Part shown: in pieces, positions 7,253 to 40,036 of the stretch
Layout of the letters: each line of letters opens with the position of its first letter
Numbering within the stretch: the stretch's first letter is position 1
DNA from: Fistulifera solaris
Taxonomy: Eukaryota
Length of the DNA stretch: 64,000 bases
Assembly: GCA_030295235.1 (NCBI GenBank)
Contig: AP026152.1
Span: 434,001-498,000 of the forward strand
Direction of reading: 5' to 3'
Position numbers and translations under genes: made by a program
Notes under the pieces: generated by a model
Database searches by the model: none
Told to the model about the DNA's origin: nothing
The model's input: the letters and a program-made list of their open reading frames with translations, nothing else

Positions 7253-7631
7253 GGTTATAAATGGTCAAAAGGCTTCAGCAGTGACTATTGCGGTATCATC
7301 GGGCTTCGTAAAGTGTCAATAAAACATACTCCGGGGTATAAAGCGAAGGAATTTCAAAACGCCGTGGAAAAACAGAAAAAACATCATCAAAAGCAGTTGT
7401 CTCACTCCAATTAGGGTAAAGGATAAAAATTTTCAGGACTGGCTCATTATACTTCATTCACGCTTTCATGCTTTCACCTTTCACCCTACACTTTACCTGG
7501 TAGCGAACCAAACACTTTCTCTTTTGCTAAAGACACTCCTGAGATATAGTCTCATTTGCATCATTTCAGATAATAAACGAGAGAAGGCAGCTCAATAACA
7601 ACAACTGTAGGGGCATTCGTGATTCTGAACA

Positions 7632-9101
7632 CTATCCTCTTGTTACTGATTCGTGACTGCTGGCATCATCCTCTTCCGACTCGCTGCTCTCATTTTCGCC
7701 TCTTTTATCATTGTTTAACGTAGCCACCGATCGATAAGCGCGATATTCGTCACCTCTGAACTCGTCGTACCTGTCCTCATATCGATCTTCCCCTTCAAAA
7801 AGACGACACGTATCCGCGATGCGATCATTGATACTCTGTTTTCGTGGTACCAAGGCATCCGAGATCCGCGATCTAGCCCATAAGCGAAAGACTTCCGAAA
7901 CCGAATCAAGAAGAGATGATATGGTTACGGGGTTCAGTAAAGTCGTGCGGGTCGCCACTTCCGTTATATTTTCCGCTATCTGAGGTAGCATTGCGAATTC
8001 TTCGTCGACATCCAACTCATCCAGTATCAACGGGTACACTTGCTGAATGAATGGAACGGTAGAGAGCTCTGGGCGAAACTTGCCAGCTTTTATATTGATA
8101 CACCCGGGGTACGCTTTCAACAAGAGAATAAGTACTTCTTGAACAAGAGGTCGGTTGCAACGATTCGCTAGCATGTGTATCGGCAGATATCCATGGCCGC
8201 AAATCTGTTGACGGACCAGATCCGAATGTTCAGAAATGAGATAGCGGCATATTTTGGCGACATTTGGCGTGCATCTGTTGGGAAATCCGAAGTCGTCCAA
8301 CTCGATGCCAAATCGGCGTGAAAATTCAAGATTTTCGTCTCGCTCGGCAAGAGCAGAGCAAACTTCATGTAGCAAAGTATACCCGTGTTCAGTCCTGTGA
8401 TGCACTGCCTTTGGATACTGCTCAGCCATCCAAATGAAGGTATCTGCGTCGGGCATTTCAGATCCTGACAGGCTTATTACTAGTGGGTAGCCGCCCATGA
8501 ACTTTGTACTGTCCTTTTCTCGAAGTCCTTGCGGGTTTAACTCGTAAAACTTTCGGATGGTTACATTGGAAATTTGTTGATTGGCGTACCACCGGATCAT
8601 ATCGAAGTGCGGCTTCTTCTTTTGGCATACGTTGTGCTCGAACACCCATGGGTAGCACTCCAGGATCCAAGGAAGCAGCAAATCGCAGCTTCGTGCATGA
8701 TTCGCAATCAAATGAATAGGCGCGAGCTTCATTTTCTTACTGTATTCATGCCGCTCCCATACTAGTGCATGCGGATTTGCTTCGATGAGAAACCGGGTGA
8801 TGTCGGGGCCTGCGTAGCTGAACTTCTCACACACCACGTACAGCAACGAGCGCATATCTCTTTTATCATTCGTAAAAATAGTTCGGGTAAGGATAGGATG
8901 AGCCGAGACTGCTTCTTTGATGTGTTGTATCCAAGGCACAGCAAAAACTTCCCCATAATCGACACCTACATCTTCTACCTCCGCTTCGTTGTAGACCACA
9001 TTGCAGCTTTCTTCAAACAACGCGAAGAGCTCTTTCTGCAAAACTGGATCCAACTCCGTATCTAAGATTGGCTCGAGAGATGCGGGTACGTCATATGACA
9101 T
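7632..9101 (-). CDS. Array paralog A: uncharacterised protein with degenerate ankyrin-like repeats and acidic tail (489 aa)
   Basis: Intact intronless ORF with family motifs MSYDVP..PILDTEL, AHPILTRT, FLIEANPHAL, YPWVF, FYELNPQGL, PDADTFIWMAEQYP, GYLPIHMLANRCNRPLVQ. Confidence 0.85.
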   Translation of the reverse strand: MSYDVPASLEPILDTELDPVLQKELFALFEESCNVVYNEAEVEDVGVDYGEVFAVPWIQHIKEAVSAHPILTRTIFTNDKRDMRSLLYVVCEKFSYAGPDITRFLIEANPHALVWERHEYSKKMKLAPIHLIANHARSCDLLLPWILECYPWVFEHNVCQKKKPHFDMIRWYANQQISNVTIRKFYELNPQGLREKDSTKFMGGYPLVISLSGSEMPDADTFIWMAEQYPKAVHHRTEHGYTLLHEVCSALAERDENLEFSRRFGIELDDFGFPNRCTPNVAKICRYLISEHSDLVRQQICGHGYLPIHMLANRCNRPLVQEVLILLLKAYPGCINIKAGKFRPELSTVPFIQQVYPLILDELDVDEEFAMLPQIAENITEVATRTTLLNPVTISSLLDSVSEVFRLWARSRISDALVPRKQSINDRIADTCRLFEGEDRYEDRYDEFRGDEYRAYRSVATLNNDKRGENESSESEEDDASSHESVTRG

Positions 9102-9604
9102 CTTGGTTTGCTGATTCTAAATCTCAGGAGGTGATATGCTCGTCGACAAAAATAATGCAAAGAAAAACTCGGAATAGACGACGAAACATAAACGCGCGAC
9201 GGTCTGTTGTCGATGCGGGCGATGTTATTTAAAGCCACTAAGACTAATGTTCGAGGGAGTTAAAGTCGTTGTAACTAGATAGGGCTTGTAATGAATGCTT
9301 CCGGTGTTTTCATAGTATCAAATGGAGAAGGAGGCTACAACAGTGATCGGCGTCATTGGGGTTCAAAGCGTTAGAAGCGAGCAACATCAACCCTGTCGCG
9401 CAAAAAACATGAACACATTGTCTCACTCCAAATAGGATCTGATAGTTCCCAAGGCTGGCTGATAGTGTCTTTCACCGGATTACATTTTCTTGCGGAGGAA
9501 CTCTTGCGATTGCCTGATATGTGATATGCAATATGCAATACATCAAAAGAGAGCTACGGCGACTTGGACAATCTAGAAGGACTACCATGTACTTGTATCT
9601 TGTA

Positions 9605-11083
9605 TCATCTTTCTTCATGATGATTTATGAAGAAATTACTAGCATCGTCATCGTCTCTTCCGATTCGCTCTTCGTAACAATATCCATATCTCCTTAAGCC
9701 GTTAAACATAGTGACAGAAAGAAACGCAAGATATTCGTCACCGCCGAATCCGTCGTAGTTGTCCTCATAACGATCTTCCCCTTCAAAAAGAATACATGTA
9801 TCCGCGATGCGTTCATTGAGAGTCTGTCTTCGTGCCGACAAGACATCCGAGACTCGTAGATTAGTCCATAAGTGGAACACTTCTGAAACGGAACCAAAGA
9901 GAGAAGCTTTCTTGCTGGACTTGCCCGGCGCGTCCGTAGATGTCGTACGACTCGTCGGAAAGGCCCCCGCTTTAGCCATTTTTTCCGCTATGTGGAACAG
10001 CGTTGAAATTTCTTCGTCGATAGCCAGCTCATCCAGTATTAGCGGGTGCACTTGTTGAATGAATGGGACAGAGGAAAGTTCGGGACAAAATTTGCCGGCT
10101 TTAATGCTGACACAATCGGGGTATGCTCTCAACAAAAGAACTGCTATTTCTTGAACCAGCCGTCGATTGCAACGATTTGCTAGCATGTGTACAGGTAGGT
10201 ATCCGTGGCCTTGCACTTGTTGGCGAATTAAACTTGGGTGTTCGGCTATAAGAAAGCGGCATATCTTGGCGACATTGGGCGTGCATCTGGTGGGAAACCC
10301 GGCGTCGACAGCATTGCCGAGATGGCGCGCAGCTAATGTAGAGCAAACCTTATGCAACATAGTATATCCCCGTTTGTTTCTGTGATAAACTGCGTCTGGG
10401 TATTCTTGAGCCATCCAGATGAAGGTGTCTGCATCTGGCACTCCAGCTCCCGACATGCTTATCGTAAGTGGGTAGCCGCCCATATGTGGTTCATCGTCGT
10501 TTTCTCGAAGTCCTTGAGGGTATAATTCGTAAAAACGCCGGACAGTTTCAGTAGAAATTTGTTTCATGGCGTAAAACCGCATCATATTCAAGTGAGGTTT
10601 CTTCGTTCGGCATAGTTTGTGCTCAAACACCCACGGGTAGCGCTCCAGCATCCAAGGAAATAGCTCACAACCCCAAGCGCACTTCCCTATCAACAGGATA
10701 GGAATAAGTTTGGGTCCGATACTGTTACCACGCCGCTCCCAGAGAAGTGCATGCGGGTTTACTTCAATGAGAAATTTGGTAATATTGGGGCCCGCGTAAT
10801 TGAACTTTTCGCTAACAACATCTAATAGCGAGCGTATGTCCCCTTTTTCGTAGGCTGCAATAGTTCGAGCAAAGATAGGATGAGCCGAGACTTCTTCGCT
10901 AATGTGTTGAATCCAAGGCAGAGCAAAAGTTTCCGCGATATCGAAATCCAAGCGTTCCACCTCCGCCTCATTGAAGAAAATGTCGTAACTTTCTTCAAAC
11001 AGTGCCATGAACTTCTTCTGCAACTCCGGGTCCAATGCCGGAGCTAAGACGGGCTCAAACGAGTCCGGTGTATTGTTTGCCAT
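9605..11083 (-). CDS. Array paralog B (492 aa), closest relative of A
   Basis: Same motif series; tail FEGEDRYEDNYDGFGGDEYLAF matches A's FEGEDRYEDRYDEFRGDEYRAY. Confidence 0.85.
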   Translation of the reverse strand: MANNTPDSFEPVLAPALDPELQKKFMALFEESYDIFFNEAEVERLDFDIAETFALPWIQHISEEVSAHPIFARTIAAYEKGDIRSLLDVVSEKFNYAGPNITKFLIEVNPHALLWERRGNSIGPKLIPILLIGKCAWGCELFPWMLERYPWVFEHKLCRTKKPHLNMMRFYAMKQISTETVRRFYELYPQGLRENDDEPHMGGYPLTISMSGAGVPDADTFIWMAQEYPDAVYHRNKRGYTMLHKVCSTLAARHLGNAVDAGFPTRCTPNVAKICRFLIAEHPSLIRQQVQGHGYLPVHMLANRCNRRLVQEIAVLLLRAYPDCVSIKAGKFCPELSSVPFIQQVHPLILDELAIDEEISTLFHIAEKMAKAGAFPTSRTTSTDAPGKSSKKASLFGSVSEVFHLWTNLRVSDVLSARRQTLNERIADTCILFEGEDRYEDNYDGFGGDEYLAFLSVTMFNGLRRYGYCYEERIGRDDDDASNFFINHHEER

Positions 11084-11518
11084 GTTGAATCTTTAGAGAG
11101 TATGTTTTATAGAAAGAGCAAAGACGACGATGAGAAAATACGCGGAGTGAAAAGATCTTTTTCTACTTACTCCTATGCTCGTGATGCGATGCAACAAAAA
11201 CGTCGTGTGAACCATTAAGGTTCACGTTCAATGGGATTCATGACGCGAGACGAGTGACACGATGAACCAAGCTAACTATAGTGAATTAGTATCGGTAGGC
11301 CTATAAGAGATAAGATATACTCCCGTACTTGGTAATGTAATGATGATACTGAACCACGTTTGGCTATATATGCGTTAGCCGTAAAATATAGCCCCTAACA
11401 AAACTCCCCCTTGATGGCAAAACAATGCTTACCCGTTTTGGCCTGGTGCATCCCAGGCTTCCTTACTCGTTAGTAAATTACGCAGTTCAGGCATAAAAAA
11501 ATACTGACGCTATCCAAG

Positions 11519-12980
11519 CTAAGCTCCCCCATAGTTCTCCTCTTCCGAACGGCGGCTCGTGTAATAATTTCCAAACACATCCATGTTTGGGTTGAAAACA
11601 CGTTCTACATCTCTTTCAAAATCTTCGTATAGGTCATTCGCGCGATCTTCCGCTTCAAAAACCCGACAGCTGCCCGCGATGCGCTCATGGATACGCTGCT
11701 TTCGACAATCCAAGACATTCGAGATTCGCGATCTAGCCCATGAGCGAAATATTTCCGCAACGGTACCGAAGAGGGAATGCGTGACAGCCGGGCCAGTCGG
11801 AGCCTCGAGCCTCGATAAACATCATCTGAGGTGTTGATAAGACAGCCGCTCCCAGCAGATTGTCTGCGGTTAGGGACAACATTAAAATCTCTTCGTCGAT
11901 TTCCGTCGCGTTCAGAATCAGTGGGCGCAAGTTTTGAATGAACGGAACTGTACAAAGGGCGGGACGAAATTCTCCCGCCTTCACGCTGACACAGTCAGGG
12001 TACGCTCTCAACAGAAGAACAACTATTTCTTGAACCAGTGGTCGGTTGCAACGATGTGCCAGCATATGAATCGGTAAGTATCCACGATCCTTTACTTGCT
12101 CGCGGGTTAGATCAGGATGGGCGGTAATGAGGAAACGGCAAATTTTTGCCAATGTAAGTGCGCGTTGGCTGGACGTTTCTGTACGGTCTTCCTCCATTAC
12201 TTCCAAATGCAATTCATCTCTTTCACCAAGCCTCAGGCATAATTCATGCAAAATAGTATATCCGCGATCGATTTTCACATACACAACGCCTGGGTACTAT
12301 TCGGCCATCCAGATGAAGAGATCCGGGTCGGGTAGTTCCGGTCCAGCTATGCTTATTGACAGAGGGTAGCCGCCCCTTATCCGATACGGTGATCTATCCT
12401 TCTCTTGAAGTCCTTGTGGGTATAAATCGTAAAATTTCCACACGGTTTCTGTCGAACAGTGGCGCTCGGCGTAACAACGCATCATGTTTAAGTGTGATGG
12501 ATTCTTTCGACATACTCTGTGCGCAAACACCCATACGTAGTGCTCAGCGATCCATAGAAGCAAGTCGCAAGTCTCAGGATAGTTCCCTATTAAATGAACT
12601 GGTGCACGTTTTCCTGAGCCTCTCCTATAGCGCCGTTTCCAGAGCAGTGCATGCGGGTTGGCTTCAATGAGCAGCTTGGTACTGGTGTTACTTTGGTCAC
12701 GATGGCCTATCATTTCGCAGGACACGTCGAGTAATGACCACATTCTTTTTTGCGTGTTGACGACACGAGCGAGGATCGGATCCTTGACAAGAGCATCGCT
12801 CAAACTTTCATAGAAAGAACTCGCTATAGCTGCTACCAATTCGAAACCCAAAAGTCGAGCTTCATGTCCTGAGAAAAGATCGTAGCCCTCCCAAAACAAG
12901 GAAGTAAACGTTTCATGCAGCTCCGCTGTAAGTTCGGTATCTAATACTGGCTTGAATGACTCGGTTTTCTCGTATGCCAT
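11519..12980 (-). pseudogene. Array paralog C, inactivated
   Basis: In-frame TAG at 12297-12299 where other copies have Gln (WMAEQYP). A 7-bp tandem duplication GAGCCTC (11800-11813) shifts the frame before SLFGTVAEIFRSWARSRIS. Confidence 0.8.
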
Positions 12981-13361
12981 GATGCCATGATGACTTTCGT
13001 TTCAAGTAAAGAAAAAATGTCGTCTTGTTTCATTTGGGTCGCAACAGAATAGCGCAGACGTGCACGATGACAGTCGTGGCGCAATACCAGGTATGTCGAT
13101 ATGCGATGCCGCTTGTCTGCCGCAAAAGTTTGCTGAGAGTTAGGGTTACTATATTCAATACGAGCAATAAAAAACTTTAGTGCCAAGTGCCAACCAAGCT
13201 GACAACAACTAGACCCAACCCTCTCCGCGAAGAGAGTAGCTTGTGACCAAAAGACAAATCATTCGAATAGATTGAGAGATTGTTTTCGCAAGCTGTATGG
13301 AGTAAACTTTTTCAACGTTCTCCGATCCTTATTTCTTTCCTTATTTCTTTAGATAAAAAAA

Positions 13362-15161
13362 TCATCGTTTTCGTTTGCGCCCCGCTTCATACTCAAGTGC
13401 GAACTCACTAGCTTCTTGCTTCCGGCCGCCTGTACAAGTATCGACTTCGATATAAGCGTCGTATCGTGTATCGACGATCTGGGACGCGCACTCTCCATTC
13501 CAGTTCTCTTCTTGTACGATTTCGTCGACTACGTCGCTGCCCCTTCTATTTACTGTTTCATGTTCACGACCAGCATCCTCGGTGGAAAAGCCGTCGGCCT
13601 TTTCATAGACATTCTCTAGCGTCAGATCGTCACTCCTCACCTCTTCCCCGGTTTCGTGCTCTACTTGTTCATCAATGTCATCAACAACATCGTCGATTTC
13701 TGCTTCTGAGAATTCATCAGGACCTAGATTATCTACCGAAGGATCTCCGTCTCTGTCGCCCTCGTCTTCGAAGTTATTATAGAGATTTTCGTCGCGGTTT
13801 AAATTGTCGTCTTCTTCCCCGATTTCGTTAAGATCATTGTCGTCTGCTTCGTCCCAGTCCACAAGTTCCGCTATTTCGTCGGAAACATCCATGATATTGC
13901 AAAAACCTTTCATGTAGCTTTGATATATTTGTTTCTCTGGCAATAAATCACCGGAGATTCTCAGCTCCACCCAGCAACGGAAGACTTCAGAGACGGAGTT
14001 AAAGAGAGAAGAATGCAAACCTTTTATCGGTTCAGTCGATGTTCCGAAATTGTTTGCTGGAAGATCCGTTGCATCTACCATGTTTTGGGAGCATTGTACT
14101 AGCAACGCGATCTCCTCTTCAATCGCTAACTCTGCGAGAATGAGCGGATGGACGCGACGGATGAATCGGACACGGGAAAGTTCGGAATACACATTGCCCG
14201 CCTTTACTTGCACACACTCGGGGTACGCTTTCAGCAAGAGAATTACGATTTGCTGTACAATCGGTCGATTGCAACGGTGGGCTAACATGTGAATTGGCAA
14301 GTAACCATCGTCGTCTTTCTGGCGGATCAATTGAGGATGCTTAGAAATAAGGAAACGGCATATCTTTGCCATGTTGGGCGAACATTTGAAGGGTTTAGGA
14401 AAAACTAGATGCGTGTCCCTTTTCTCAGCCAACGAGGCACAAACTTCGTGAAGCAAAGTAAAGTTTTCACCGTAGTCGTCGTGAACTGCCTCAGGGTACT
14501 GCTCCGCCATCCAGATAAACAGATCGGCATCTGGCTCATGGCGCCCTGTCAGACTGACCATTAACGGGTTACCCAAGCGGCCCTCTTCACCTTTCTCGGC
14601 AAGCCCTTCTGGGTACAACTCATAGAATTTTCGTATTTCTTGTGTATGCTCCAAGCAGCAACTTAAGTCGTTGACAGAGCATTTTACCATTGACAAATGA
14701 GGGGGATATTGTTGACATAACTCGTGCTTGAATATCCACGGATAGCGCTCCACAATCCAGGGAAACAGCACAAAATTATCGGTGTGCCCCGTTAACATGT
14801 AAATGGGACCGCGGTAAACTTTATTATCAGTATCGGCCCATAGTAGCGCATGCGGATTTGCTTCGATGAGAAATTTAATTGCTTTATGACATAAGTAGAG
14901 AGTTCTGTCGCACACAATTTTTAGCAGCGTCCACTTGCGATGATTGTATACGTAAACAGTCCGAGCCAGAATAGGATGTGCCGAGACCGATTCCTTTATG
15001 TGTTGATACAAACGCTCGGCGGCGGAATCTATGTCGTCGAAATCGTCATGCTGGCAAACGGCGCAGATCTCGTCGTACAAGACATGAAACTCGTCGTGCA
15101 ATTCTGCTGGCAAATCTGTATCCAGAACTGGCTCGAACTCTTCGGGTATCTCGTATGACAT
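13362..15161 (-). CDS. Array paralog D (599 aa) with long D/E-rich tail ending RKRKR
   Basis: Start MSYEIPEEFEPVLDTDL at 15161; all family motifs present; intact ORF. Confidence 0.85.
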   Translation of the reverse strand: MSYEIPEEFEPVLDTDLPAELHDEFHVLYDEICAVCQHDDFDDIDSAAERLYQHIKESVSAHPILARTVYVYNHRKWTLLKIVCDRTLYLCHKAIKFLIEANPHALLWADTDNKVYRGPIYMLTGHTDNFVLFPWIVERYPWIFKHELCQQYPPHLSMVKCSVNDLSCCLEHTQEIRKFYELYPEGLAEKGEEGRLGNPLMVSLTGRHEPDADLFIWMAEQYPEAVHDDYGENFTLLHEVCASLAEKRDTHLVFPKPFKCSPNMAKICRFLISKHPQLIRQKDDDGYLPIHMLAHRCNRPIVQQIVILLLKAYPECVQVKAGNVYSELSRVRFIRRVHPLILAELAIEEEIALLVQCSQNMVDATDLPANNFGTSTEPIKGLHSSLFNSVSEVFRCWVELRISGDLLPEKQIYQSYMKGFCNIMDVSDEIAELVDWDEADDNDLNEIGEEDDNLNRDENLYNNFEDEGDRDGDPSVDNLGPDEFSEAEIDDVVDDIDEQVEHETGEEVRSDDLTLENVYEKADGFSTEDAGREHETVNRRGSDVVDEIVQEENWNGECASQIVDTRYDAYIEVDTCTGGRKQEASEFALEYEAGRKRKR

Positions 15162-15727
15162 TCTGGCTTTCGTTTTGAATGATAAATTAAAGAGGATGAA
15201 TAACTTAAGAAACGACGAACAAAATGCGAACAAAAACCCGGCTTGACTGAACTTTCAGTCCCGGAGGCTAGAAGCATCTTTCTCACTATTATCGTTCCGC
15301 TTCTTCACATCTTTCCTTTCACAGCAACGGCATGACTAGACTAAATCGAAACCAAAGAGGAAGGCAGTCAAGGTTGAAAAGCGTTACTTTACGAAAATAA
15401 AACTTATATTACAAGCGGGGGCGACCTCGAAAAGACTTTATTAGGGTGTAGATAATTTATGCTAACCAAAGACACGAGTCCATTATCTCGCGAATATTTC
15501 ATCGCTTTCCTTTTCACCCCCGACTATTCAAGCACACTGCGGTGTGAATCTTCCGCTTATAGATTTCGCTAAAAATAATGGTATCTCTGTCATTTTGACG
15601 GTTTTAAGCGCTTCCTACTGCATGAAAAGACAAAACAACTTCAGGCTTCAGCTTCTCCGGTTTATTTTTAATCGATTGTGACGACTCGTGACTGCCATCG
15701 CCTTCGGTGAAGCAAATAAGAGCGGTA

Positions 15728-17339
15728 TCATCGTTTTCGTTTCAGTCCACACTCAAATGTAAACATATGAACTTGATTCCGGTTGCCGGTATCGACTTCT
15801 CTGAGACCACCTCCTCCGTCATTGGCGATCTCGACAGCACGAGCTTCATTCCCGTTGTTTTCTTGTGCGATTTCGTCGGGTCTGTCGATGTCTCTATTTA
15901 ATGGTTCCGGCGCATGATCTTCGCTCCTGTCCTCTTCCGCCTCGACATTACTGGGAATGTCGTCGTTCTCAGAGTTGGCATCATCTTCGTTGTTACCGTG
16001 CGAGGCATCGTTGTCCTCTCCAATCGAGCCGTCTTCCTCCAACTCTTCGTCTGATTCGTCGGCTCCTTCGAGGATACGTCCGAAGTATTCAATGGAATTT
16101 TGAAATAATTGTTTCTCTTTTGATAGATCGGAAACTCTGAGATTCGCCCAAGAGCAAAATACTTCCGAAAGGGATTCGAAGAAAGAGGATTTCGCTACGG
16201 ATTGGGCTGCTGCAGTTGACGAAGAAATGTTTCTTGAAGGCATCTTTGCTGCTTCGATCACATTTCGCGATATCTGTTTCAAGGAGGCACTCTCTTTCTC
16301 GAGTCTCGATATTACAAAAGCAATCGGATGAGCCACCCGAATGAACGGAAGCGATAACAGCTTGGGATTTTCTAAGACGCACTCGGGATAAGCTTTCAGC
16401 AAAGAACCACAATTTGCTGCACGAGTGGCCGATTGCAACGATGCGCAAGCAAATCAAATGGCAAACACCCGTCATCATCTTTCTGCTGAATCAGATGAGG
16501 ATACTTAGAAATGAGGTAGCGACAAATATTGGCCGTGTCAGGACAGCATTTGTTGGTTTTTGGCATGCGTGTATCTTCTTTTTCGGTCAGTAAGGAACAC
16601 GCCTGATGCAGCATGTTACAACCTCCCGGGAAAATGTCGTTTACAGCTTCGGGATATCTTTCTGCCATCCAGATAAACATTTCCGCATCGGGTGCCCTCC
16701 AACCCAGCATTGTCACCGAAAGCGGGTATCCGAAGCGATTTGCTTCGTCTTTTTCACCGAGCCCTTGCGGGTATAACTCATAAAATTCTCTACAAGCCTC
16801 AATGTTTTCCAGAGTACAGATGTCGTTGAAGATACCGTGCACCATCTTTAGGTGGGGCGGAACCTTTGACACATTTCACTTTGAAAAATCCATGGATAGC
16901 GCTCCACAATCCATGGAAGCAACACACTGTGCCAAGTATCCTCCGCAATCATATAAATGGGTGCACCTTGGTGATATTTGTAAGGATCACCGCCATTTGA
17001 CCACAGTAGGGCATACGGATTCGCCTCGATTACGAGCTGGATTGTTTTGCAGCACTCTCCAAGAGTCTCATCGATAAGAATTTCCAAAAGCGACTGCTTG
17101 TCTGTTTTGTCGATCGTTCGGGCAAGAATAGGATTGGCTGAGATCTCTTCCTGTACGGTTTGGTGCAAGCGGTCAGCGGCGACGTCTATAGATTCTACAG
17201 ATTCTTCTTCTTCGCCACCGTGAATGATCCTTCTAAAGTCAAAGACCTCCTTCAACAACGCATGAAACTTGTTGCGCAACTCTGGTGACAAATCCGTATC
17301 TAACAATGGCCTAACTAGCTCGGTTGATTCGTGTGACAT
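15728..17339 (-). CDS. Array paralog E, split into three ORFs by two 1-nt deletions; tail ends LKRKR
   Basis: MSHESTELVRPLLDTDLSPEL start. Frame breaks at ~16860 (C-run; CQRF/PPHLKM) and ~16400 (T-run; IVVL/LKAYPEC) are each repaired by one added base. Confidence 0.75.
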
Positions 17340-17776
17340 GTTGTGTTCTTTCAGATAATTGTGATTGTTATTATAGAGCGTTGAGAAGCAATGCGATGAC
17401 TCGCACTAGTGCTTTCGCAACAAACGGCGTCGAACATGCTTTTCTTCATGTTTTTGGAGGGAGAAAAGCAGCCTCGCGGTTCGCGCACTTTGATCGGCTA
17501 AACAAATGGACCGACGGGCTCGCACTGGATCCCGGTCACATCAAACATAGAAGAATGAATACCGGTACCAGGTACCGTATCGTCGCGGGCACGAACGCCA
17601 TGCTAAAACGCAAACACAAAGCAACGCGCGCGCAAAGGTGTCCATTGCGTACGTATGTCGTCCGTATTCCGCATGCCGATGCGATCGACCAAGCGTTTTG
17701 ATTATTTTTGATAAGTAATTGTTCCGTTTCATTTTCCTTCTTGTTCATAGCTGCTTTTACACTTTCAAAATACATT

Positions 17777-19267
17777 ATGCGGTGTAAACATCCCTATATC
17801 AAGCTCCATTCAGTATTCTTGCTGTTAATTTTCTCATCAATATGCCGGACAAATGCGTTTCTTTTATCACCTGCCCAGCAAAGGACGATAGTTCGATCTT
17901 CTTTTCATCGAACAGAGTTAGATGCAATCAAACGTCCCAACAAGCCGACTGGTAATGCTACAAGCAACAAAAACAAAGCAAACGGTAATAATAACAAAAA
18001 GAAAAAAGCCTCAGCTGCAACAGCCCCGAACTTCGTCATCAGCTTCCCCTTCAGAACCTGCGAAAAGAAAGACAGTAGTAGAAAGACCAAAAGCTCGACA
18101 CCGCCGTGGCAAGTCCTCAGTACAAAAGAGGCAAAAGCTAATATATCGAAAGAAATAGATCGAAGGAACCAAATCAAAGAGGGGCTGGCGCCCACTCATC
18201 GACCTACGGCATCCAAAAACTCATCTCGCGAGTCGAAGATCCTGTCGAAGGATTTTCTCGCGGACGCAGATCGTAAATTGTTGAATTGGAAACCATTCAA
18301 TCCCGATAAAGCAATCATGGGTATGAAAATGGTCGGCGCTTACTTGGATGACCGTCAACTACCGCCCCGCTTGGGTGTACCCGAGGTGGCTTTCTTGGGT
18401 CGATCCAACGTGGGCAAATCGAGTCTCCTCAACCGACTCACCGCCTCGGCCGTCCAATCCTCTACCAAAGCGCGTGTCGGCAAAACACCGGGTGCAACTG
18501 CGAGTGTAAACCTTTACTCGCTGTACAATCGTAAGGAAAAGGATCTACTAGGATTTGTCGATTTGCCCGGGTTCGGTTTCGCTAAATTGTCGAAGGATAC
18601 CAAGGCGGCCGTCGAAGCGGCAGCCGAAAATTATCTCGGCAAACGAAAAGAACTAATGCTGGGTATACTATTAGTGGATATTCGGAGAATACCGAGCGAA
18701 GATGATCGTGCCGTATTGGCGGCCTTGTTTGATATGGGAGTGCCCATTGCCGTCGTCGCCACCAAGACGGACAAGATTTCGTCGTTGAATGAACGAGAGA
18801 AACAGTTACTGGAAATCAATCAACAATTGGGTTTGCCGGAAGGTCAGCCACTCTGTGTGAGCAGCGTGACGGGCGAAGGAATTCGCGATTTGTGGAGAAT
18901 CGTTTTAGAGGCATGCGAAGCGGGTGTAGCCGAGAAATTCGCACAGTATCAAGAAAAGTCTGAAGAAACGGACGATGAGGACGACTATGACGATGACGAA
19001 GAAGAAGAAGGTATGGGTGCGTTCGAAGACTCAGAGGATATAGTTTACGATCAGGGCTATGACTGGGTCCATGGAAATTATTATGAGGGTGATACGGATG
19101 AGGAAGACGGCGAATATTTGGGAGATGATGATTCGTACGAATTTGAGGACGACGATGATTTCTTTTACGACCCCGATATTTCCAATGTACAGAATAATTC
19201 TCCCAAAGAAACACTCAAGGAACTAAGAAAAAGAGTCCGAGATATGGAACGAAGAGGGGATGTGTAA
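17777..19267 (+). CDS. engB: Plastid-targeted EngB/YihA (YsxC) ribosome-biogenesis GTPase with acidic C-terminus
   Basis: PEVAFLGRSNVGKSSLLN, KTPGAT, DLPGFG, TKTDK, SS; signal peptide ...TNA-F. Confidence 0.9.
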   Translation: MRCKHPYIKLHSVFLLLIFSSICRTNAFLLSPAQQRTIVRSSFHRTELDAIKRPNKPTGNATSNKNKANGNNNKKKKASAATAPNFVISFPFRTCEKKDSSRKTKSSTPPWQVLSTKEAKANISKEIDRRNQIKEGLAPTHRPTASKNSSRESKILSKDFLADADRKLLNWKPFNPDKAIMGMKMVGAYLDDRQLPPRLGVPEVAFLGRSNVGKSSLLNRLTASAVQSSTKARVGKTPGATASVNLYSLYNRKEKDLLGFVDLPGFGFAKLSKDTKAAVEAAAENYLGKRKELMLGILLVDIRRIPSEDDRAVLAALFDMGVPIAVVATKTDKISSLNEREKQLLEINQQLGLPEGQPLCVSSVTGEGIRDLWRIVLEACEAGVAEKFAQYQEKSEETDDEDDYDDDEEEEGMGAFEDSEDIVYDQGYDWVHGNYYEGDTDEEDGEYLGDDDSYEFEDDDDFFYDPDISNVQNNSPKETLKELRKRVRDMERRGDV

Positions 19268-19320
19268 ACTGACATTTAGTAACAAATAGGTAGATTAATT
19301 CGCCAAATTTATGTGCGCTT

Positions 19321-20292
19321 TCACTCTTTGGCGGCTTGCAACAGCGCGTTGCGCATCTCACTACTATCCTTGCTCGAAGAAGGAACAAACGTTGTCTTAC
19401 AATGGGGAGCGGATCCGACACTTTGAATCATATCAAAGTATTGAGTGAGGAGTAACAGGTCCATGACATCTTTCGTACCAGCACCTTGTACATTACTGGA
19501 AAAGTCCACAATGCTTGATCTCAAACCATCGACAATAGCCTTGCGCTGTTTCGAAACTCCCACACCGGATAAATACTTCGATTCTGCTTCCGCTTCGGCT
19601 GCTTTGACTTGAAGAATCTTGTCTCCTTCCGCCCGTTCCGCAATCGCATACTTCAATCGCTTCGAACTGTTAATTTCGTTCATGGCATTCTTGTTGTATC
19701 CATAGTGTGAGTATCATGCGATTCGGCCGACTATTCTTTAGCTTCGACAACTTACTTTGACACGTTGATCCGGATCGAGATCGGTGATCAGCACTTGTAC
19801 AATTTGATACCCATAATTCGTCATCGTTTCTGCTAGAGCATTCTTTACCGTCAATGCCAATTCTTCTTTGGCTTCAAAGACAGCATCGAGTTCCAAGCTT
19901 GGAAGTTCCGAGCGCATGACCTATACAGCAAGAGCGAAAGCGGTAAGAAGGAGGAGTAAGTCCGAAATACAAAGAACCGTAGTACGTACATCGTACACAT
20001 GCGCCGTAATTTGTTGGGTGGGATTGGTGAGCGCATAGTAGGCATCAAACACTTTTTCACGCAACACTTGATACTGCACCGAAACGACCGCCATGAGAAA
20101 GACATTGTCGAGTGTTTTGGTCTCCACTCTCACATTGAGTTGCTGCACACGAAAAGATAACTTCCCCACGAGTTGCTCCATGGGACAAATGGTGTAATTG
20201 AACCCAGGTTGCACCAATCGCGAAAAGAGACCAAAGCGTTCGACCACTCCGACTTCGGCGGTCTGAATAATGAAGCAGCATGGAAAACACAT
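19321..20292 (-). CDS. Hypersensitive-induced response (HIR)-type SPFH/band-7 protein; introns 19921-19989 and 19690-19755
   Basis: RVQQLNVRVETKTLDNVF, AYYALTNPTQQITAHVYD/VMRSELP, AMNEIN, AEAEAESKYLSGVGVSKQRKAIVDGLR, DVMDLLLLTQYFD; Cys-rich N-terminus MCFPCC. Confidence 0.92.
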
Positions 20293-20831
20293 GATGAATA
20301 ATGGCGGTGATATTCGCAAAAGATGAGGTGCAATGATTTGAACGGAAAAGAGGATCGCAATGAGCTTATCAAGGCTCTTCCTTCTGCAAAAACGTCAATA
20401 ATACGTTTCTCTACTAATGCCGGGGCGTATTTGTATTGGTTGAACGACTTTGAACGATACCGGGTTGGGGCGAAACATAAAAGATTGCAACAACATCAAA
20501 ATGCAAGGCGAGCTTCCGATTCGATTGAGCTCTTCAGTTTTCACTATCGAATACGGAGTACTTTGTAATGATATCTTGCGAGGCCGGGCTCTACATTACT
20601 CCGTATTTATTATTTGTGACTTTGAATACCGCTACGAATGTCGGGTACCGGATCCCTCGAAAAAGATCGCGCAATAAAGATTTCGACGCGTTGGCGACGC
20701 GACGATGACACACTTTCCCGATAATTATGCGACGAAACAGATTCAAGTTCGCACCGCGTCCTTTCTATTTTTGTTGCGAGTGCGTGAAGTAGACTATGTG
20801 AAGTGTGAAAACGATGCCATTTTTCGTGAAT

Positions 20832-21109
20832 CCTTGAAATTTTACTATGAAACGGAATGTTAGTTTACGCCAGCCAAGACTGGATTGTACAGTAGCCATA
20901 AACCGAACAACAAAGGGTTCCGTTTTGTGTCATTCAATTGCGAATATAATTATATTTACGGGTAAATAACGTCGCAGCAATAATGATTCTCAACTACTTG
21001 TTAAGAGTTTCTCATATTTTCACGTCGAAAATCCGAGGATGGACACCTTGAATTTTCACTATGAAACAAAGTGTTGGTTTACGCCAGCCAAGACTGGATT
21101 GTACAGTAG
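20832..21109. repeat. Two copies of a ~64-bp direct repeat (20832-20895 and 21046-21109) with a perfect 33-bp core
   Basis: gtttacgccagccaagactggattgtacagtag at 20863-20895 and 21077-21109; flanking ccttgaa..tt.actatgaaac also shared. Confidence 0.9.
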
Positions 21110-21227
21110 TCATGAAACACAATTGTTTCATTCAGCTCGCACGCAGTCGCATTCATGGGGACCATGGGACAATAAAGCATTCTTTGGCAAAGAAAACACC
21201 TGATTAGCATTCTAGACAATAAGCAAC

Positions 21228-22550
21228 ATGACATACGAGATTCCCGATGAGCCCGAGGCAATCCTTGATACGGCATTGCCACCGGAAATGCAGAAAGCGT
21301 TTCGTGCACTCTTCTGCCATCCTGTCTTCGACTTTCCCATCGCTTATGATAGAAAGCACGAGCCAGCGGAAGAGGCGGCTATGCTCTTGTATCAAGACAT
21401 CAAAAAAGAACTTTCGGCGCATCCCATCCTGGCGCGTACAATCAACTTAAACAGACAGACACGCCCGTTTTCAAGACAGACACTCTTAGAAAAAGTCATC
21501 GTAGACCGAACCAGTGCCTGTCGGGACACTATTCAGTTCCTCATTGAGGCAAATCCACACGCCTTGATATGGGAGCATGGAGTTCGTCGTCATGGTTGTC
21601 GTGGCATTCCAGTCGCACTGATTCATCTGCTAGGGGAAAGCTACTGGGGAGAAGGACTACTTCCGTGGATAGTGGATAAATATCCTTGGGTATTTCAGCA
21701 CCCACTGTGTCAAAAATTTCCACCGCATATTGCGATGGTGAGATCATGGGTCCGCACTCAATGTGACTTGGAAACCGTTCGAAACTTCTATAAATTGTAC
21801 CCACAGGGACTCCGCGAGAAAGAACACAAGTCCTATCCGCTATGGGTTAGTCTAAGGGGATACGTTGCGCCCAATTCAGACTTCTTTATCTGGATGGCGA
21901 AACAGTATCCAGAGGCTGTATATTACGAACCATCTCGCGGTTATACTCTACTGCACGATTTCTGTGTTTTACTTGCCAAGCAAGTCGTGAAATCTTCCGA
22001 GTGGTCCACGATGAACGTGGCAAACATATTCCGCTTCCTCGTTTCGGAACATCCCAGTCTAGTTCGACAAACATACAGCGGATGGTTGCCCATTCACTTT
22101 CTTGCTCGTTCTTGCGAGTGGCCCATTGTACAAGAAGTTGTGATTCTTTTGTTAAGAGCGTACCCCGAGAGCGTACGAACAAGATCTACGAATGCGCACA
22201 TGACGGAGCTCTCTCAGGTCCCATTTATCCAGGCAGTGCATCCATTCATCGTAAAAGAACTGGAAATCGATGACGAGATTGCGTTGCTGAATCCAATTTC
22301 GGAAAATTTAATTGAGGCAGCCAGTGTATCGACGACTCATCGAGTTTCATTGACGAGTGCAAGCGATGATAGTTCTGCACGGATTGCTGCTATTTTTGAT
22401 TCCCTTTCTATAGCGTTTCAGTGTTGGGCCAATCAACGAGTGGATGCTTTATCAGTACAGAAGCAGCAAATTGCAAAGTCTCTTGATGAAGCGGGTAAGC
22501 GGTTCTTAGCAGTACGCGACAACAGCAGTAACGACCACTCAGAGGATTGA
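21228..22550 (+). CDS. Array paralog F (440 aa), essentially lacking the acidic tail
   Basis: MTYEIPDEPEAILDTALPPEM, AHPILART, FLIEANPHAL, FYKLYPQGL, FIWMAKQYP, WLPIHFLARSC; intact. Confidence 0.85.
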   Translation: MTYEIPDEPEAILDTALPPEMQKAFRALFCHPVFDFPIAYDRKHEPAEEAAMLLYQDIKKELSAHPILARTINLNRQTRPFSRQTLLEKVIVDRTSACRDTIQFLIEANPHALIWEHGVRRHGCRGIPVALIHLLGESYWGEGLLPWIVDKYPWVFQHPLCQKFPPHIAMVRSWVRTQCDLETVRNFYKLYPQGLREKEHKSYPLWVSLRGYVAPNSDFFIWMAKQYPEAVYYEPSRGYTLLHDFCVLLAKQVVKSSEWSTMNVANIFRFLVSEHPSLVRQTYSGWLPIHFLARSCEWPIVQEVVILLLRAYPESVRTRSTNAHMTELSQVPFIQAVHPFIVKELEIDDEIALLNPISENLIEAASVSTTHRVSLTSASDDSSARIAAIFDSLSIAFQCWANQRVDALSVQKQQIAKSLDEAGKRFLAVRDNSSNDHSED

Positions 22551-23286
22551 TTAAGATTTCGAAAATGATTCGCCTAAAATGCTTTTGTACCGTAAGATGA
22601 GCAAGATGGCGTCTGTTGGGAGCCCACGTGGATCACCGATAAAGTTTCTACGAATTACATCCGCATTTGTAGTAGTTGCCCCTCGAAAATGAGATCGCAA
22701 GCTCCAAGCCAATTCATCTATAAGCGCCCTCAAGAGACTAGAAAAGCCGAAACACTGCCTGTTGAATACCTCGTAAGGAGCAAGGAAGCACCTTAGATTT
22801 TCTGGAGAATACTCCGAAATGTATATGAATTATCAGCTTATCAGGTCCTGCGTACAGAGTACTGGTAGTGGTAGCAGGTACCATTAAGGACGTAAGGTTA
22901 TACTCCGTAAATAATTTGGTTCTAACTTCTAACCATACTGTAGAATTTTCCTTGTCAGTGTCAGATCCACGAATGAATCGCACCGCTTTAATAATAACTC
23001 GGAAGTTCGATGGCGTGCAGCCAGCAAAAGAAAAACAAAGCGGATTTTATTGTAAATAAGAAAGCGTGTTTTTGATTTCTGAATAAAAGGTGAGATGAGA
23101 AATGATTTATCGTCGAAAGTATGATGCTTGATCTTTCAAAAGACCTGTTCAATCACCGGTACCCTTACAAGTCTTGTCTCGACCACTCCCCCCTTTGTCA
23201 AGTGAACAAGAATTGCTTTGCGACTTTTGCTGTCGAATAGTTCTCTTATATCTTTATGAAACTACCTGATTGAAAAGTGCAACATC

Positions 23287-24812
23287 ATGTCGTACGAAAT
23301 ACCAGAATCGTCGAAGCCGATCCTCGATTCGGAATTGCCAGCGGACTTGCAAAGAACGTTTCATGAAGTGTGTATCAATGCAGACTCTATTTGTTCGTTT
23401 TACGAATTTATGGAACCAATGGAAAACTTTAGCACAATCTTTGATCGACAGCAAGATTTGAAGGCAGTAGTCTTGGCACATCCTGTCTTGGCACGAACGG
23501 TGACGAATGACAGTTGCAAGATATCGCTACTGAAAATTATTGCCACGAGCAACGGCCAACTTCTTCGGCGAACCCTTGAATTCCTCCTGCATACCAACCC
23601 GTATGCACTACTGTACCCAGGTTCCCGGAGGTGCAATTGCCTCATTCATGACATTGCGGCGGATAGTAGGAACTGTTTTTGCTCCCATGGATTGCCGAAC
23701 ACTATCCGTGGGTGTTCCAGCATGCTTTGTGCCAGCGAAGGCCACCCCACATTAAAATGATGAAATGCTACATCAAGGGCCGGTGCAGCCTAGAAACTGT
23801 CCGGAACTTTTACGAATGGTACCCGCAAGGTCTTCAGGAAAAAGATACCGCTAGTCCGCAGCACGTGTCCCTGTATCCCCTGTCGCTGTACTGTGAGGGA
23901 TTGGCTGATCCCGACGCCGATTTCTTTATCTGGATGGCTAAGCAATTCCCTGACGCTGTACATGATAAACTTACTATGGGGCGTACTATGCTGCAAAAGA
24001 TTTGTTTTTCACTTTGCACGCCGAACTTAGCCAAAATTTGCCGTTTCCTTATTACCGAACATGCTGGTCTCATACGCGAAAAAGGAACTAATGGATGGCC
24101 TCTGCCGATTCAAGCGCTGGCTATAGGTTGCAATCGTCCCCTGGTGCAGGAAATGATTGTTCTTATGCTGAAAACGTGTCCCGAGTGTATCAAAGGCAGT
24201 TCAGGGAACTGGCTCAAGGACCTTTCATCAGTTGCGTTTCTTCAACAAGTTCATCCGCTCATTGTACGCGAATTGGAAATCAATGAAGAGATTAATGTAC
24301 TCACTCAGATGTCGAATAACATTACAAAAGCAGCAACCCTGACGTCCCATCAATCTAGGAATGAAACAGGGAGCAAAGGCGTGAAATCGGCTCTTTTTCA
24401 TTCCATGTCGGTAGTCTATTGTTCCTGGTCAAACCTAAGAACCTGTAGCGGCTTACCGGAGCAGAAGCAACAAATACAAGACAAAATATCGGAAGTATGT
24501 CGTCGCTGGGAAGGGGACAACGACGTTCCTCAGATAGAGTGGGAACTAGAAATAATGGCAGTAGAAGTAGGAATAGGATTGCTAGATTGGATGGCCAACG
24601 ATGATGATGACGGCAATTATAATGATCGCTTCTTAAGAGAGGATCGCGCCTCTGAGAATGAGGAGAACGAAAACTATTCCTTCGGAAGCAGATGTTGTTG
24701 GCCTTTCAACCGAAATCGAGGACGCGGTCGACGACAACGTCACTGTCGGAGTCCAGAGTCCCGAAGATTACGACATTTCCTTCGATAGCGAGCAGTATAG
24801 GTGTTTAAGATG
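23287..24812 (+). CDS. Array paralog G, frameshifted at ~23680 and probably ~24680
   Basis: MSYEIPESSKPILDSELPADL start; T-run break (NCF/LLPWIAEHYPWVF); an acidic tail continues in another frame (EADVVGLSTEIEDAVDD...). Confidence 0.75.
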
Positions 24813-24849
24813 ATCGTTTATGCATCTGAGCGTGATGGGAATGGCTTAG

Positions 24850-26400
24850 ACAACCAAAATTTGCCGTTTTCTTATCACCAACATCGTGATTTGATCCTCC
24901 AAGATATGTACCGGTATCATAGCGGTCATCTACCGATTGTTATGCTAACACATCGATGCAACCGTCCTCTGGTGCAGGACGTGGCTGTTCTCGTGATGAA
25001 AACATGCCTTGAGTGTGAAAGATAGGGCAGGCATCTGACTCCCTTGACTTTCTACGAATCCGTTCATTCAGCAAGTTCATCGGCTTGTTGTGCAAGACTC
25101 AGAATTCGATAAGGAGATGTCTTTCCAGCTTAAGTGTCGAATTTTATTGCCAGGGCAGCTATCAAGACGACGCATCGATCTAAGAGACAAGCGGACGGTA
25201 TCGTCATGAAATCGGCCTTACTTGGTTCTCTTTCGGGAGTTTTCCGCTCGTGGGCGGACCTTCGAATACAGAAGCAACAAATACAAGAGCAAATAATAGC
25301 GGAGTGTGTCGTAATGCGGAAGGAGATTACGTTCCTGAAAGAGTGTGGATTGCAGATCAAATGAGAGTAACTTTACAAAGATTTGATGGCGCATCCCGAC
25401 GCCGATATTGACGACGATGATGATGACGTTGTTTCTAGGGGCCGCGGATATGCGTTAAACAGCGAAGACGAAGTTGAAGTTGAAGACGAATGAGAAGGGT
25501 ATGGCGCTTTTGGGCCGGAAAGCGAAGAGGACGAACGCTTTTTTTTCTGAAAACGCCAAGCACTTAAAATCCGTATTTTGGGAAAGATTTGACAGTGTCG
25601 ACAGTATCGATAGTGACACCTCTCGTGGAGGTAATTCATCGCATTCTGACAATAATGGCAAGAACTCACCCGAAATCGACGCTGCTGATAACTCAAGTAT
25701 GAGAATTGTTGGTCGGAAGAGGATAAAGAAGACGATGATGTATGATGATTTTCCCAGGAAGATGAATCTAACGGCAATGTTTCCACCGCCGTTGAAGCGC
25801 ACGACGACGTCTTCACCGCCATTGCGGAAATGAAGACTTCTATGACGATCGCTCTCCTGAAACTGAGAATGAGGAGGGTGTGTTTGATGACAGCAAGGCG
25901 AATAACTACGATTATGAAGATCAGTCCCCTGAGACAGACGATGTTCACAAGCGTGCTGATGAAGTAGATCAGTACAAAGGCGATAGTACGTCTGACGGTG
26001 AGATTGAAGAGGATGACGCACCACATAAATCGAGGAAGAAGCTTGCTCTCATGAAGAACCTGGCGAGATCGATATTTCCGCCGCAATTGAAGAGGACGAT
26101 GACGTTTCCACTGACGTTGAGGATAATGAAGAACATGACTGCTATCATGAAAATAAGTCCCCTGAGACCGACGACGTATACGAGCGCGCTGATGAAGCAG
26201 CTCAGCACGAAGACGTTCGTTCGTCTGACGACGAGATCGGAGAGGATGATGCACCAGATGAAATTGAGGAAGAAGCTGACGAGATCGATGAAGTTGGTTG
26301 TGCCGAAAGCGATGGCCATGAGGATTATTACGACTACGACGATTACGTTGTTTGCGACGACTACGATTACTACGGCAATGACTATTCGGCTGGCGGATAG
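24850..26400 (+). pseudogene. Array paralog H: 5'-truncated, multiply disrupted remnant with very long acidic tail
   Basis: Fragments KICRFLI, GHLPIVMLTHRCNRPLVQDVAVLVMKTC, PFIQQVHRLV, SLSGVFRSWADLRIQKQQIQ, then ~1 kb of D/E codons interrupted by stops and frameshifts. Confidence 0.75.
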
Positions 26401-26476
26401 AGCTATCGAAAGCTCGTTGAGCACGGTTATGAGTAGAGATATTGTTTGAGACTACATCTGCCGTTCACTTCTAGAA

Positions 26477-27116
26477 CTAGCTATTGTTTTCGGCGCCTTC
26501 CGAGAAAAATTGACTCAGTTTGTAGTGTTTGTCGTCGTCCTCCGATTTTGGTCTGTGACGATGATGTTTCTTCCGGCGTTTCCTGGAGCTGTCATCACTT
26601 TCCGAGTCACTGCTGCTACTCTCCCTATGCCGGTGTTTCCTCTTTTGTGTTTTCGTTTCTGTTTTTTCTTGCTGTGCTTTTTATGGTCTCCACTGCTCTC
26701 GGAACTCTCTTCCGAAGTGCTCTCGTCCGAAGAGGACTCGTCCTCTTTCCGTCGTCTGCGTTTCTTCTTCTTTTTCTTTGATTTTACTGATTTCCGCGCC
26801 AGCAGTCGATCACGTTGTTCGTCTAATTTCCTTCGATACAATTCCATTTCCTGTTCATTGGTTTCGTCTAAATTTAACTTATCATGATTGTCCTTTTGTA
26901 TTGCTCCCACGTGGGTCGATTCGCATCCGCCAATTTTTCGGCAATCGTTCGTTCTTCCCGACCCGTCATGAGACGCATCACCGCGTCCATTTGGGCGCTC
27001 GGAGGAGGCACCGCCGTAGTAGCTGTGCGCTGTTGGGCGGCAAAGCGAGCATCTTGTGCCGGACGATCGGCCACTTTCGAATAGTCGACGAGGGATTTGC
27101 GTGGAGGATCACTCAT
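26477..27116 (-). CDS. FAM133-like Lys/Ser-rich nuclear protein (frameshifted)
   Basis: RTIAEKLADANRPTWEQYK resembles the FAM133 RPTWE motif; poly-K/R and S/E tracts; ends KHYKLSQFFSEGAENNS; frame breaks at ~26890 and ~26630. Confidence 0.55.
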
Positions 27117-39477: not shown

Positions 39478-39983
39478 AGCTTAGCCAGAAACATTGCTGT
39501 GCATTGTGTATGTAAGAGATCTAGGCGCAAAGAGGAAAAGAAAAGATGTGGGCTCTCTCTATAACCTTTGCGAGATCGAGATCTATGTCTAACCCTAACT
39601 ATAAGCACTCTCTCTTAATTATTCCAGCCGGGCGACAATCTTCCTTGGGTGCATGACAGACGAAAGGCGTAAGATTTGTACTGCAATAACGTTTGTTTTG
39701 TTGACAATAAAGATCGTTCATCGTTGCAACAGCTTAGCCAGAAACATTGCTGTGCATTGTGTATGTAAGAGATCTAGGCGCAAAGAGGAAAAGAAAAGAT
39801 GTGGGCTCTCTCTATAACCTTTGCGAGATCGAGATCTATGTCTAACCCTAACTATAAGCACTCTCTCTTAATCATTCCAGCCGGGCGACAATCTTCCTTG
39901 GGTGCATGACAGACGAAAGGCGTAAGATTTGTACTGCAATAACGTTTGTTTTGTTGACAATAAAGATCGTTCATCGTTGCAAC
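39478..39983. repeat. 253-bp head-to-tail tandem duplication (39478-39730, 39731-39983)
   Basis: Both copies read directly; the single difference found is ctcttaattattcc vs ctcttaatcattcc. Confidence 0.95.
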
Positions 39984-40036
39984 ACGCTTGTGTTGGCTTG
40001 CGATCCAACATTGCTGTCCGCATTTCGTTGACAGCC

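Follow-up and report, generated by a model that had tools for sequence, protein, structure and literature searches.

An apparently old, tandemly amplified family of ankyrin-like proteins in the diatom Fistulifera solaris evolves faster than its neighbours under purifying selection

The window analysed here, a stretch of 64,000 nucleotides of Fistulifera solaris (GenBank assembly GCA_030295235.1, contig AP026152.1, positions 434,001 to 498,000, or C32:434001-498000 in my numbering of a genome of 51.7 Mb in 62 contigs), carries eight copies of a gene family whose products are predicted to consist of about seven degenerate ankyrin repeats and an antiparallel helical hairpin of 90 residues, to which most copies add an acidic tail. 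The family evolves faster than the neighbouring genes but under purifying selection, and its variation is concentrated on the concave face of the modelled repeats. I consider it likely, if only modestly so, that this is an old diatom family of soluble intracellular ankyrin adaptor or sequestering proteins, whose tandem amplification in the lineage of Fistulifera preceded the split of the two subgenomes.

Copies in the window and in the genome were detected with a profile made from 31 homologues. In the window it matches eight copies between 7635 and 25361, with expectation values (E) below 1e-50 for whole copies and of 7e-12 to 6e-5 for pieces of the last one, H; seven copies are full-length and H is a 5'-truncated remnant:

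7632-9101, minus strand: copy A, open, 489 amino acids; predicted ankyrin solenoid at about residues 18-350, helical hairpin at 350-435, acidic tail
9605-11083, minus strand: copy B, open, 492 amino acids; sister of A (62% at the amino acid level, synonymous divergence (dS) 0.78)
11519-12980, minus strand: copy C, pseudogene; TAG at 12297-12299, 7-bp duplication near 11810
13362-15161, minus strand: copy D, open, 599 amino acids; long acidic tail with terminal RKRKR
15728-17339, minus strand: copy E (FisN_14Hh222), open in reality, 537 amino acids; tail terminus KRKR, assembly errors at about 16864 and about 16400
21228-22550, plus strand: copy F, open, 440 amino acids, short tail
23287-24788, plus strand: copy G, open in reality, with one base lost from the assembly at 23675
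24879-26400, plus strand: copy H, 5'-truncated remnant covering profile positions 271-423, then a decayed acidic tail; stops and frameshifts

An earlier note, made from the letters of the window, had already described eight paralogs in these orientations and an ordered series of motifs, which indeed recurs in the same order in the copies, and the sister pairs it named, A/B and D/E, both receive a bootstrap value of 100. Its spacing of about 2 kb is roughly borne out, with offsets of 1.8-2.4 kb within A-E and F-G and of 1.6 kb from G to H. What it took for one array is actually two blocks oriented away from each other, A-E and F-H, with an E-F gap of 3.9 kb that contains genes for a GTPase and a Band-7 protein as well as part of a 236-bp repeat, and the region 25360-26400, which lay within its array, is not family core but the decayed acidic tail of H. 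A, B, D and F each form a single open reading frame. Genome-wide there are at least 40 copies at 11 places, as found by running the profile on fetched stretches around genome matches and grouping the places by hand; a second genome search yielded zero further places. No 6-8-mer clearly exceeding shuffles, as a shared promoter motif might, was found in the 250 bp upstream of 20 copies.

The fold was predicted by running AlphaFold2 on an alignment of 42 rows (predicted local distance difference test score 90.2, predicted template modelling score 0.87), and the model consists of helix pairs from residue 19 to about 350 and two further helices at 350-389 and 394-435. The VIA fold search (best match Z 13.8, root-mean-square deviation 3.0, 170 residues aligned) lists ankyrin proteins or complexes of designed ankyrin repeat proteins (DARPins), the best Foldseek match is ankyrin-B (E 9.6e-4), and the Atlas search lists ankyrin clusters, including a mostly diatom cluster of 165 members at 0.96. 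The degenerate ankyrin-like fold proposed from the motifs is thus borne out by model and searches alike. Standard profiles miss it: the window copies (best E 0.005) and 42 close members (best E 0.001) stay below the gathering cut-off of the Pfam Ank clan, which several full-length distant relatives, e.g. P0059, P0076 and P0097, do reach, and the family profile has no match among PDB sequences at E up to 1. Matches to viral proteins in the fold searches are generic ankyrin matches at 10-18% identity. Below-cut-off matches to HTH_upst_double_PIN (13 of the 42 members) fall on one repeat and were taken as chance. The hairpin on its own is a plain two-helix hairpin, for which the fold search returns generic coiled coils only (best Z 8.9), and its identification with a known domain was rejected accordingly. 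Hydropathy gave no evident signal peptide or membrane helix in six of six proteins (19-residue maximum 1.32-1.45).

The conserved Cys, His and Trp residues to which the earlier note drew attention hold up in part. Prolines are the only invariant residues in a set of 63 sequences; conservation is 98% for Trp145 and Trp408 and 52-95% for the Cys and His columns, and the open copy E lacks both His156 and His309. His245 and His309 stand where the ankyrin consensus motif TPLH has its His. As several of the incompletely conserved Cys and His residues occupy ankyrin core positions, they give no pointer to a catalytic or metal site, and I rejected an enzyme or metal site on the ground that none is invariant, though some copies may bind a structural metal. 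An acidic tail is present in 59 of the 126 homologues that reach the end of the core, and KRKR-type ends are found in D, E and one further C32 copy.

In order to separate real lesions from assembly errors, contigs of four public runs were compared with positions 7300-26700 of the window. The frameshifts at 16864 in E and 23675 in G each correspond to one base lost in a run of T, where the X1 and X2 contigs both have the extra T; the second break in E, near 16400, is spanned by an X2 contig with exactly one gap, and E is continuous across both breaks in three database records of 526-537 amino acids. At least 12 one-base insertions or deletions separate this region from the public contigs, among them those at 18002 and 18062 in the GTPase reading frame. 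Given the position in T runs and the at least ten further one-base differences, the breaks in E and G are assembly errors, which leaves six of the eight copies open and only C and H broken. The stop in C is real, as the X1 contig across the site has nine listed substitutions, none of them at the TAG, and a database protein, P0063, terminates at this very codon; the 7-bp duplication is probably real as well, judging by the number of gaps in the X1 contig. In H, profile positions 1-270 are absent, and the stops and frameshifts match the X2 contig with zero other letters. Introns were ruled out as a cause of the breaks, which are single-base insertions or deletions, the only joints in RNA-like contigs lying in the Band-7 gene. 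The coexistence of intact, frameshifted, nonsense-mutated and truncated copies that had been noted therefore stands for the nonsense mutation in C and the truncation of H, whereas decay was overcounted by the frameshifts of E and G. On other contigs, too, frameshifted copies are continuous in database proteins (P0009, P0015, P0019, P0043, P0044 and P0045), so that fewer copies are dead than the assembly suggests. A frameshift in this assembly does not suffice to call a pseudogene unless reads confirm it, and calls of open reading frames across it need read support.

Among named homologues the closest are proteins of F. solaris, whose names come in H and L pairs, and the species has been described as allopolyploid, having two subgenomes (PMC5935921, in its accessible part). 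Contig C33 runs collinear with the window, the DNA identity being about 77-88%, and the copies on this contig are taken as the homoeologs throughout. Of A only a 3' fragment is left there; the homoeolog of B, FisN_14Lh220, is open; that of C has its stop at another, later position, so that C was broken separately in each subgenome; that of D is broken, and that of F carries a stop and a frameshift. H is closest to FisN_14Lu250 (about 71% DNA identity), and another C33 copy, FisN_14Lu249, has no partner in the window. When 23075-26277 is compared with C33:477554-481757, G pairs with the third and H with the second plus-strand copy of C33, so the order differs between the homoeologs. With C and H dead and the homoeologous copy sets different, birth-and-death turnover, as the earlier note called it, is an apt description.

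Rates were compared between the subgenomes in a run of 16 family rows, leaving out three C32 copies (C32b1-3, about 64% DNA identity, not true pairs), A (65 codons) and C25_1 (122 codons). The 26 neighbouring open reading frame segments used as controls have a median ratio of nonsynonymous to synonymous divergence (dN/dS) of 0.105 and a median dS of 0.27. The five family pairs that are open on both sides are faster (dN/dS 0.15, 0.26, 0.33, 0.37 and, for B, 0.49; Mann-Whitney p 0.004) and yet reject neutrality, with likelihood-ratio statistics of 13-123. Since two control reading frames reach 0.34 and 0.57, the family is not alone in being fast. Where one partner is broken or uncertain, the pairs lie at 0.38-0.84, the upper value belonging to F and its broken homoeolog, a pair indistinguishable from neutral (likelihood-ratio statistic 0.9). 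Between paralogs (36 pairs) dS is 0.72-4.6, mostly 1.6-2.6, and dN/dS 0.12-0.54, in all cases below 1; against a dS of about 0.27 between the subgenomes, this places every duplication before the subgenome split.

It could be argued from these figures that most copies are dispensable, drifting duplicates, one or a few doing the ancestral job and the others decaying slowly. C was broken independently in both subgenomes, F is near neutral against its broken homoeolog, and of the seven full-length window genes only B and E are shown to be open in both subgenomes (the partner of G is uncertain). However, the long paralog branches kept a dN/dS of mostly 0.2-0.35, the open pairs reject neutrality, and six copies retain sound start contexts and reading frames; general dispensability is therefore an unlikely account.

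Site models were fitted to 26 of the 31 extracted copies with my own GY94-type code, from two starts, using fixed and rescaled branch lengths taken from an IQ-TREE M0 fit. M8 is better than M7 (twice the log-likelihood difference 25.5 and 29.6), which is explained by a neutral class: a near-neutral class takes up about 13-18% of sites, with a dN/dS of 1.08-1.16 in the extra class, and a class above 1 finds no support in the comparison of M8 with M8a (p 0.36 on 276 strict columns, 0.88 on the five open pairs). In data simulated to contain a class at 1.5 (10% of sites) or at 2.0 (5% of sites), twice the log-likelihood difference came to 36 and 94 (two of five replicates finished); by these finished simulations, a lasting class at 1.5-2.0 would have shown up. 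The location of the variation is pronounced. Mean site dN/dS is 0.70 on the concave face (n = 32), 0.29 on the convex face (n = 29) and 0.20 in the core (n = 64). The contrast between concave and convex (p 9e-6) persists on strict columns (p 5e-4), and the averages at outer-helix offsets all lie at 0.09-0.46. Among paralogs the groove thus changes almost neutrally, while the outer helices stay conserved. Variation on a repeat surface, where the earlier note had proposed a test for positive selection, is thus found, on the concave ankyrin face, whereas its rapid diversification, taken as adaptive, is not supported: the pairwise ratios are all below 1, M8 is no better than M8a and the array is old.

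An arms race, in which the copies would serve inside the cell to sense or divert proteins of viruses, parasites or non-self origin and selection would have diversified the groove, is for these reasons quite unlikely. It would predict the groove to be the fastest part of the repeats, as it is, and it fits a family of such size with uneven survival between the subgenomes, as well as the preference for M8 over M7. On the other hand, the extra class is no better than a neutral one and the simulations would have revealed a stronger one; recent duplicates are lacking, the youngest paralogs having a dS of 0.72; and a signalling or nucleotide-binding domain was found neither in the window copies nor in full-length relatives nor, as weak evidence, in proteins of 943-2690 amino acids.

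Under the preferred interpretation, as adaptor or sequestering proteins, each copy would grip a protein target in its groove, so that paralogs differ in specificity, and would hold, shield or deliver this target, while the conserved back and the hairpin could provide stability or a shared partner. The acidic tail may assist in holding basic targets, by analogy with IkappaB-like inhibitors or chaperones, and D, E and the one C32 copy may work in the nucleus by virtue of their KRKR ends. Divergence would stem mainly from relaxed purifying selection and redundancy, not from a sustained arms race. Several observations weigh against this interpretation. The repeat registers were set by hand after the list of fast sites had been seen, with the binding positions within the repeats taken from DARPin design. 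Between open homoeologs, 41 of 188 concave codons differ versus 21 of 140 convex ones, which is not significant (p 0.15), and on 364 loose columns the comparison of M8 with M8a is borderline (p 0.064). The hairpin, with a mean site dN/dS of 0.48 and 102 of 409 codons differing between homoeologs, is not especially conserved, which weakens its role as a site for a shared partner, and the terminal basic motif supposed to mark nuclear copies occurs in 6 of 126 records, three of them of the same gene.

Two further proposals were considered. The proteins could be substrate receptors of cullin-RING ubiquitin ligases, like ASB, FEM1 or viral ankyrin-PRANC proteins, with a C-terminal helix on Skp1 or Elongin C. 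A variable binding face and tandem turnover are typical of such receptors, the conserved VSEVFxxWxxL motif resembles by eye an F-box end, and ASB and FEM1 structures are among the fold matches (through their ankyrin parts). Candidate Skp1 and Elongin C genes are present in the genome. However, the VSEVFxxWxxL motif lies in a long helix that is paired inside the predicted hairpin, F-box, SOCS and PRANC profiles are absent from the 12 families matched by 42 members at E up to 0.1, and the families listed for 66 relatives within E 0.001 (the best five for three long proteins) include no SOCS/BC box, F-box or PRANC, so that I regard ligase receptors as highly improbable. More broadly, the copies could form a natural DARPin-like receptor repertoire, constant back and hairpin sitting on one shared machine, be it a ubiquitin ligase or a chromatin complex. 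Each subgenome would then contribute about 20 grooves that sample different proteins, foreign or self, under selection that is episodic and too brief for site models, and the family would amount to an intracellular recognition system of diatoms that is as yet uncharacterised; this, too, strikes me as quite unlikely.

When 1.84 billion representatives were searched with the profile, 487 matched at E up to 0.001 and 104 still at 1e-30; the listing covered the best 150. Among 20 clusters looked up, one is from F. solaris and one from a transcriptome of Thalassiothrix antarctica, matching over its full length at E 1e-93. In the tree, the deep nodes of which are weak, proteins from other samples are interleaved with F. 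solaris paralogs and distant ones form their own groups. This interleaving and the Thalassiothrix homologue indicate that the family is older and wider than one species; it is probably an old diatom family. The distant relatives P0162 and P0164 (744-812 amino acids) have an N-terminal extension, a partial extra module with a barrel-like insert; in P0162 only, this insert has weak, sub-threshold chromo/Tudor-like matches and the protein also has a sub-threshold DEK_C match, which may serve as a lead. Fused forms were not found among proteins of 943-2690 amino acids, which is weak evidence, and the one family protein with a pentapeptide domain, P0035, looks like two merged neighbouring genes and was set aside.

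Two of the public runs, X4 and X5, were taken as RNA by guess, since the contigs of each lack two introns of the Band-7 gene and X5 has a poly(A) end at 26454; no run is recorded as RNA. For D these RNA-like contigs cover the 3' part, for E the tail (at depth 4) and for G the two ends, and they also extend over H; A, B, C and F have none or almost none, which is uninformative on silence. One of them, 24741-26454, runs from inside the end of G through the dead H to poly(A), so that H may be part of a 1.7-kb 3' untranslated region of G, although the contig does not prove a single transcript. None of six family gene names tried occurs in the accessible part of the supplements to the homoeolog-expression paper (PMC5935921).

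The features between the two blocks are unrelated to the family:

17702-19267, plus strand: GTPase gene of the MMR_HSR1 type (Pfam E 1e-14)
19321-20394, minus strand: Band-7/SPFH gene with two introns
20832-21116, no strand: 236-bp tandem repeat, about 1.2 units, upstream of F, member of a dispersed family

The 236-bp repeat has at least 170 matches in the genome, arranged in short head-to-tail runs; among the 150 of 170 listed, they lie on contigs C1, 3, 5, 7, 9, 11, 13, 15, 17, 21, 23, 25, 30, 32, 36, 38 and 42. It is missing from the homoeologous interval of C33 and may therefore be specific to one subgenome. Contig depth at 20832-21116 is about 1500 versus 10-20. One run of this repeat stands directly before a match to the Skp1_POZ family (C5:1568117-1569045), the partner of an Elongin C-like gene on C6. 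Elsewhere in the window, a 253-bp tandem duplication with 99% identity lies between two genes at 39478-39989.

No characterised single-function family, which the earlier note had named as a refutation of its reading, emerged from the profile, fold and literature searches. No description of the family was found in the literature, most subscription journals lying outside the coverage of the search, and the word ankyrin does not occur in the accessible part of the preprint on the F. solaris assembly (10.1101/2021.11.10.468027). To call it an undescribed system is overstated, as a second component was not found. With the ankyrin superfamily (Pfam Ank, Ank_2 and Ank_4; ankyrin-B 5y4f, p100 4ot9, DARPins) the family shares stacked helix pairs, loops, TPLH-like motifs and a variable concave face, while fixed N-terminal motifs, short extra helices and the long C-terminal hairpin mark it as separate. 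IkappaB-type inhibitors combine an ankyrin stack with an acidic PEST tail, and the succession of ankyrin stack and acidic tail is common to both (1nfi is among the fold matches); unlike IkappaB, the present family has the extra 90-residue hairpin, identity is 13-14%, and no partner transcription factor has been identified. NLR-like arrays show similar tandem birth-and-death turnover, but here no site class with dN/dS significantly above 1 and no signalling domain were found.

A diatom parallel is provided by dAnk1-3 of Thalassiosira pseudonana (PMC9894196, PMC13652820, each in its accessible part), which by eye have repeats of the same LPxH...LLxAYP type and a C-terminal coiled-coil-like part, and which are described as cytosolic ankyrin proteins (PMC9894196). 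The present family could accordingly dock on the silica deposition vesicle and tune the valve pattern. However, the head motifs of dAnk1-3, as I read them from the published sequences, are found in none of 206 proteins, dAnk repeats are found by standard profiles, and dAnk2/3 are described as possibly ubiquitous in diatoms (PMC9894196), whereas the present family has many decaying copies; I therefore think a dAnk-like role very unlikely. Likened by published description, in the text accessible, are two tandem or similar expansions: HOM000035 of Bathycoccus, a lineage-specific tandem ankyrin expansion of 149 copies with unknown function, which differs in that its repeats are C-terminal, behind an unknown N-terminal part (PMC3491373), and the 113 ankyrin-labelled genes of Nitzschia inconspicua (PMC8329260). 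Genome editing is reported for F. solaris (PMC13276009, in its accessible part), and if it is true that the groove repertoire senses viruses or partners, the family would offer a testable handle on intracellular recognition in diatoms. Tandem ankyrin expansions are already known from algae, and the family is of this familiar ankyrin kind, while undescribed as a family in the literature searched; as a diatom ankyrin family that can be defined although it escapes standard profiles, with a confident model and a clear pattern of constant back and variable groove, it is useful for annotation.

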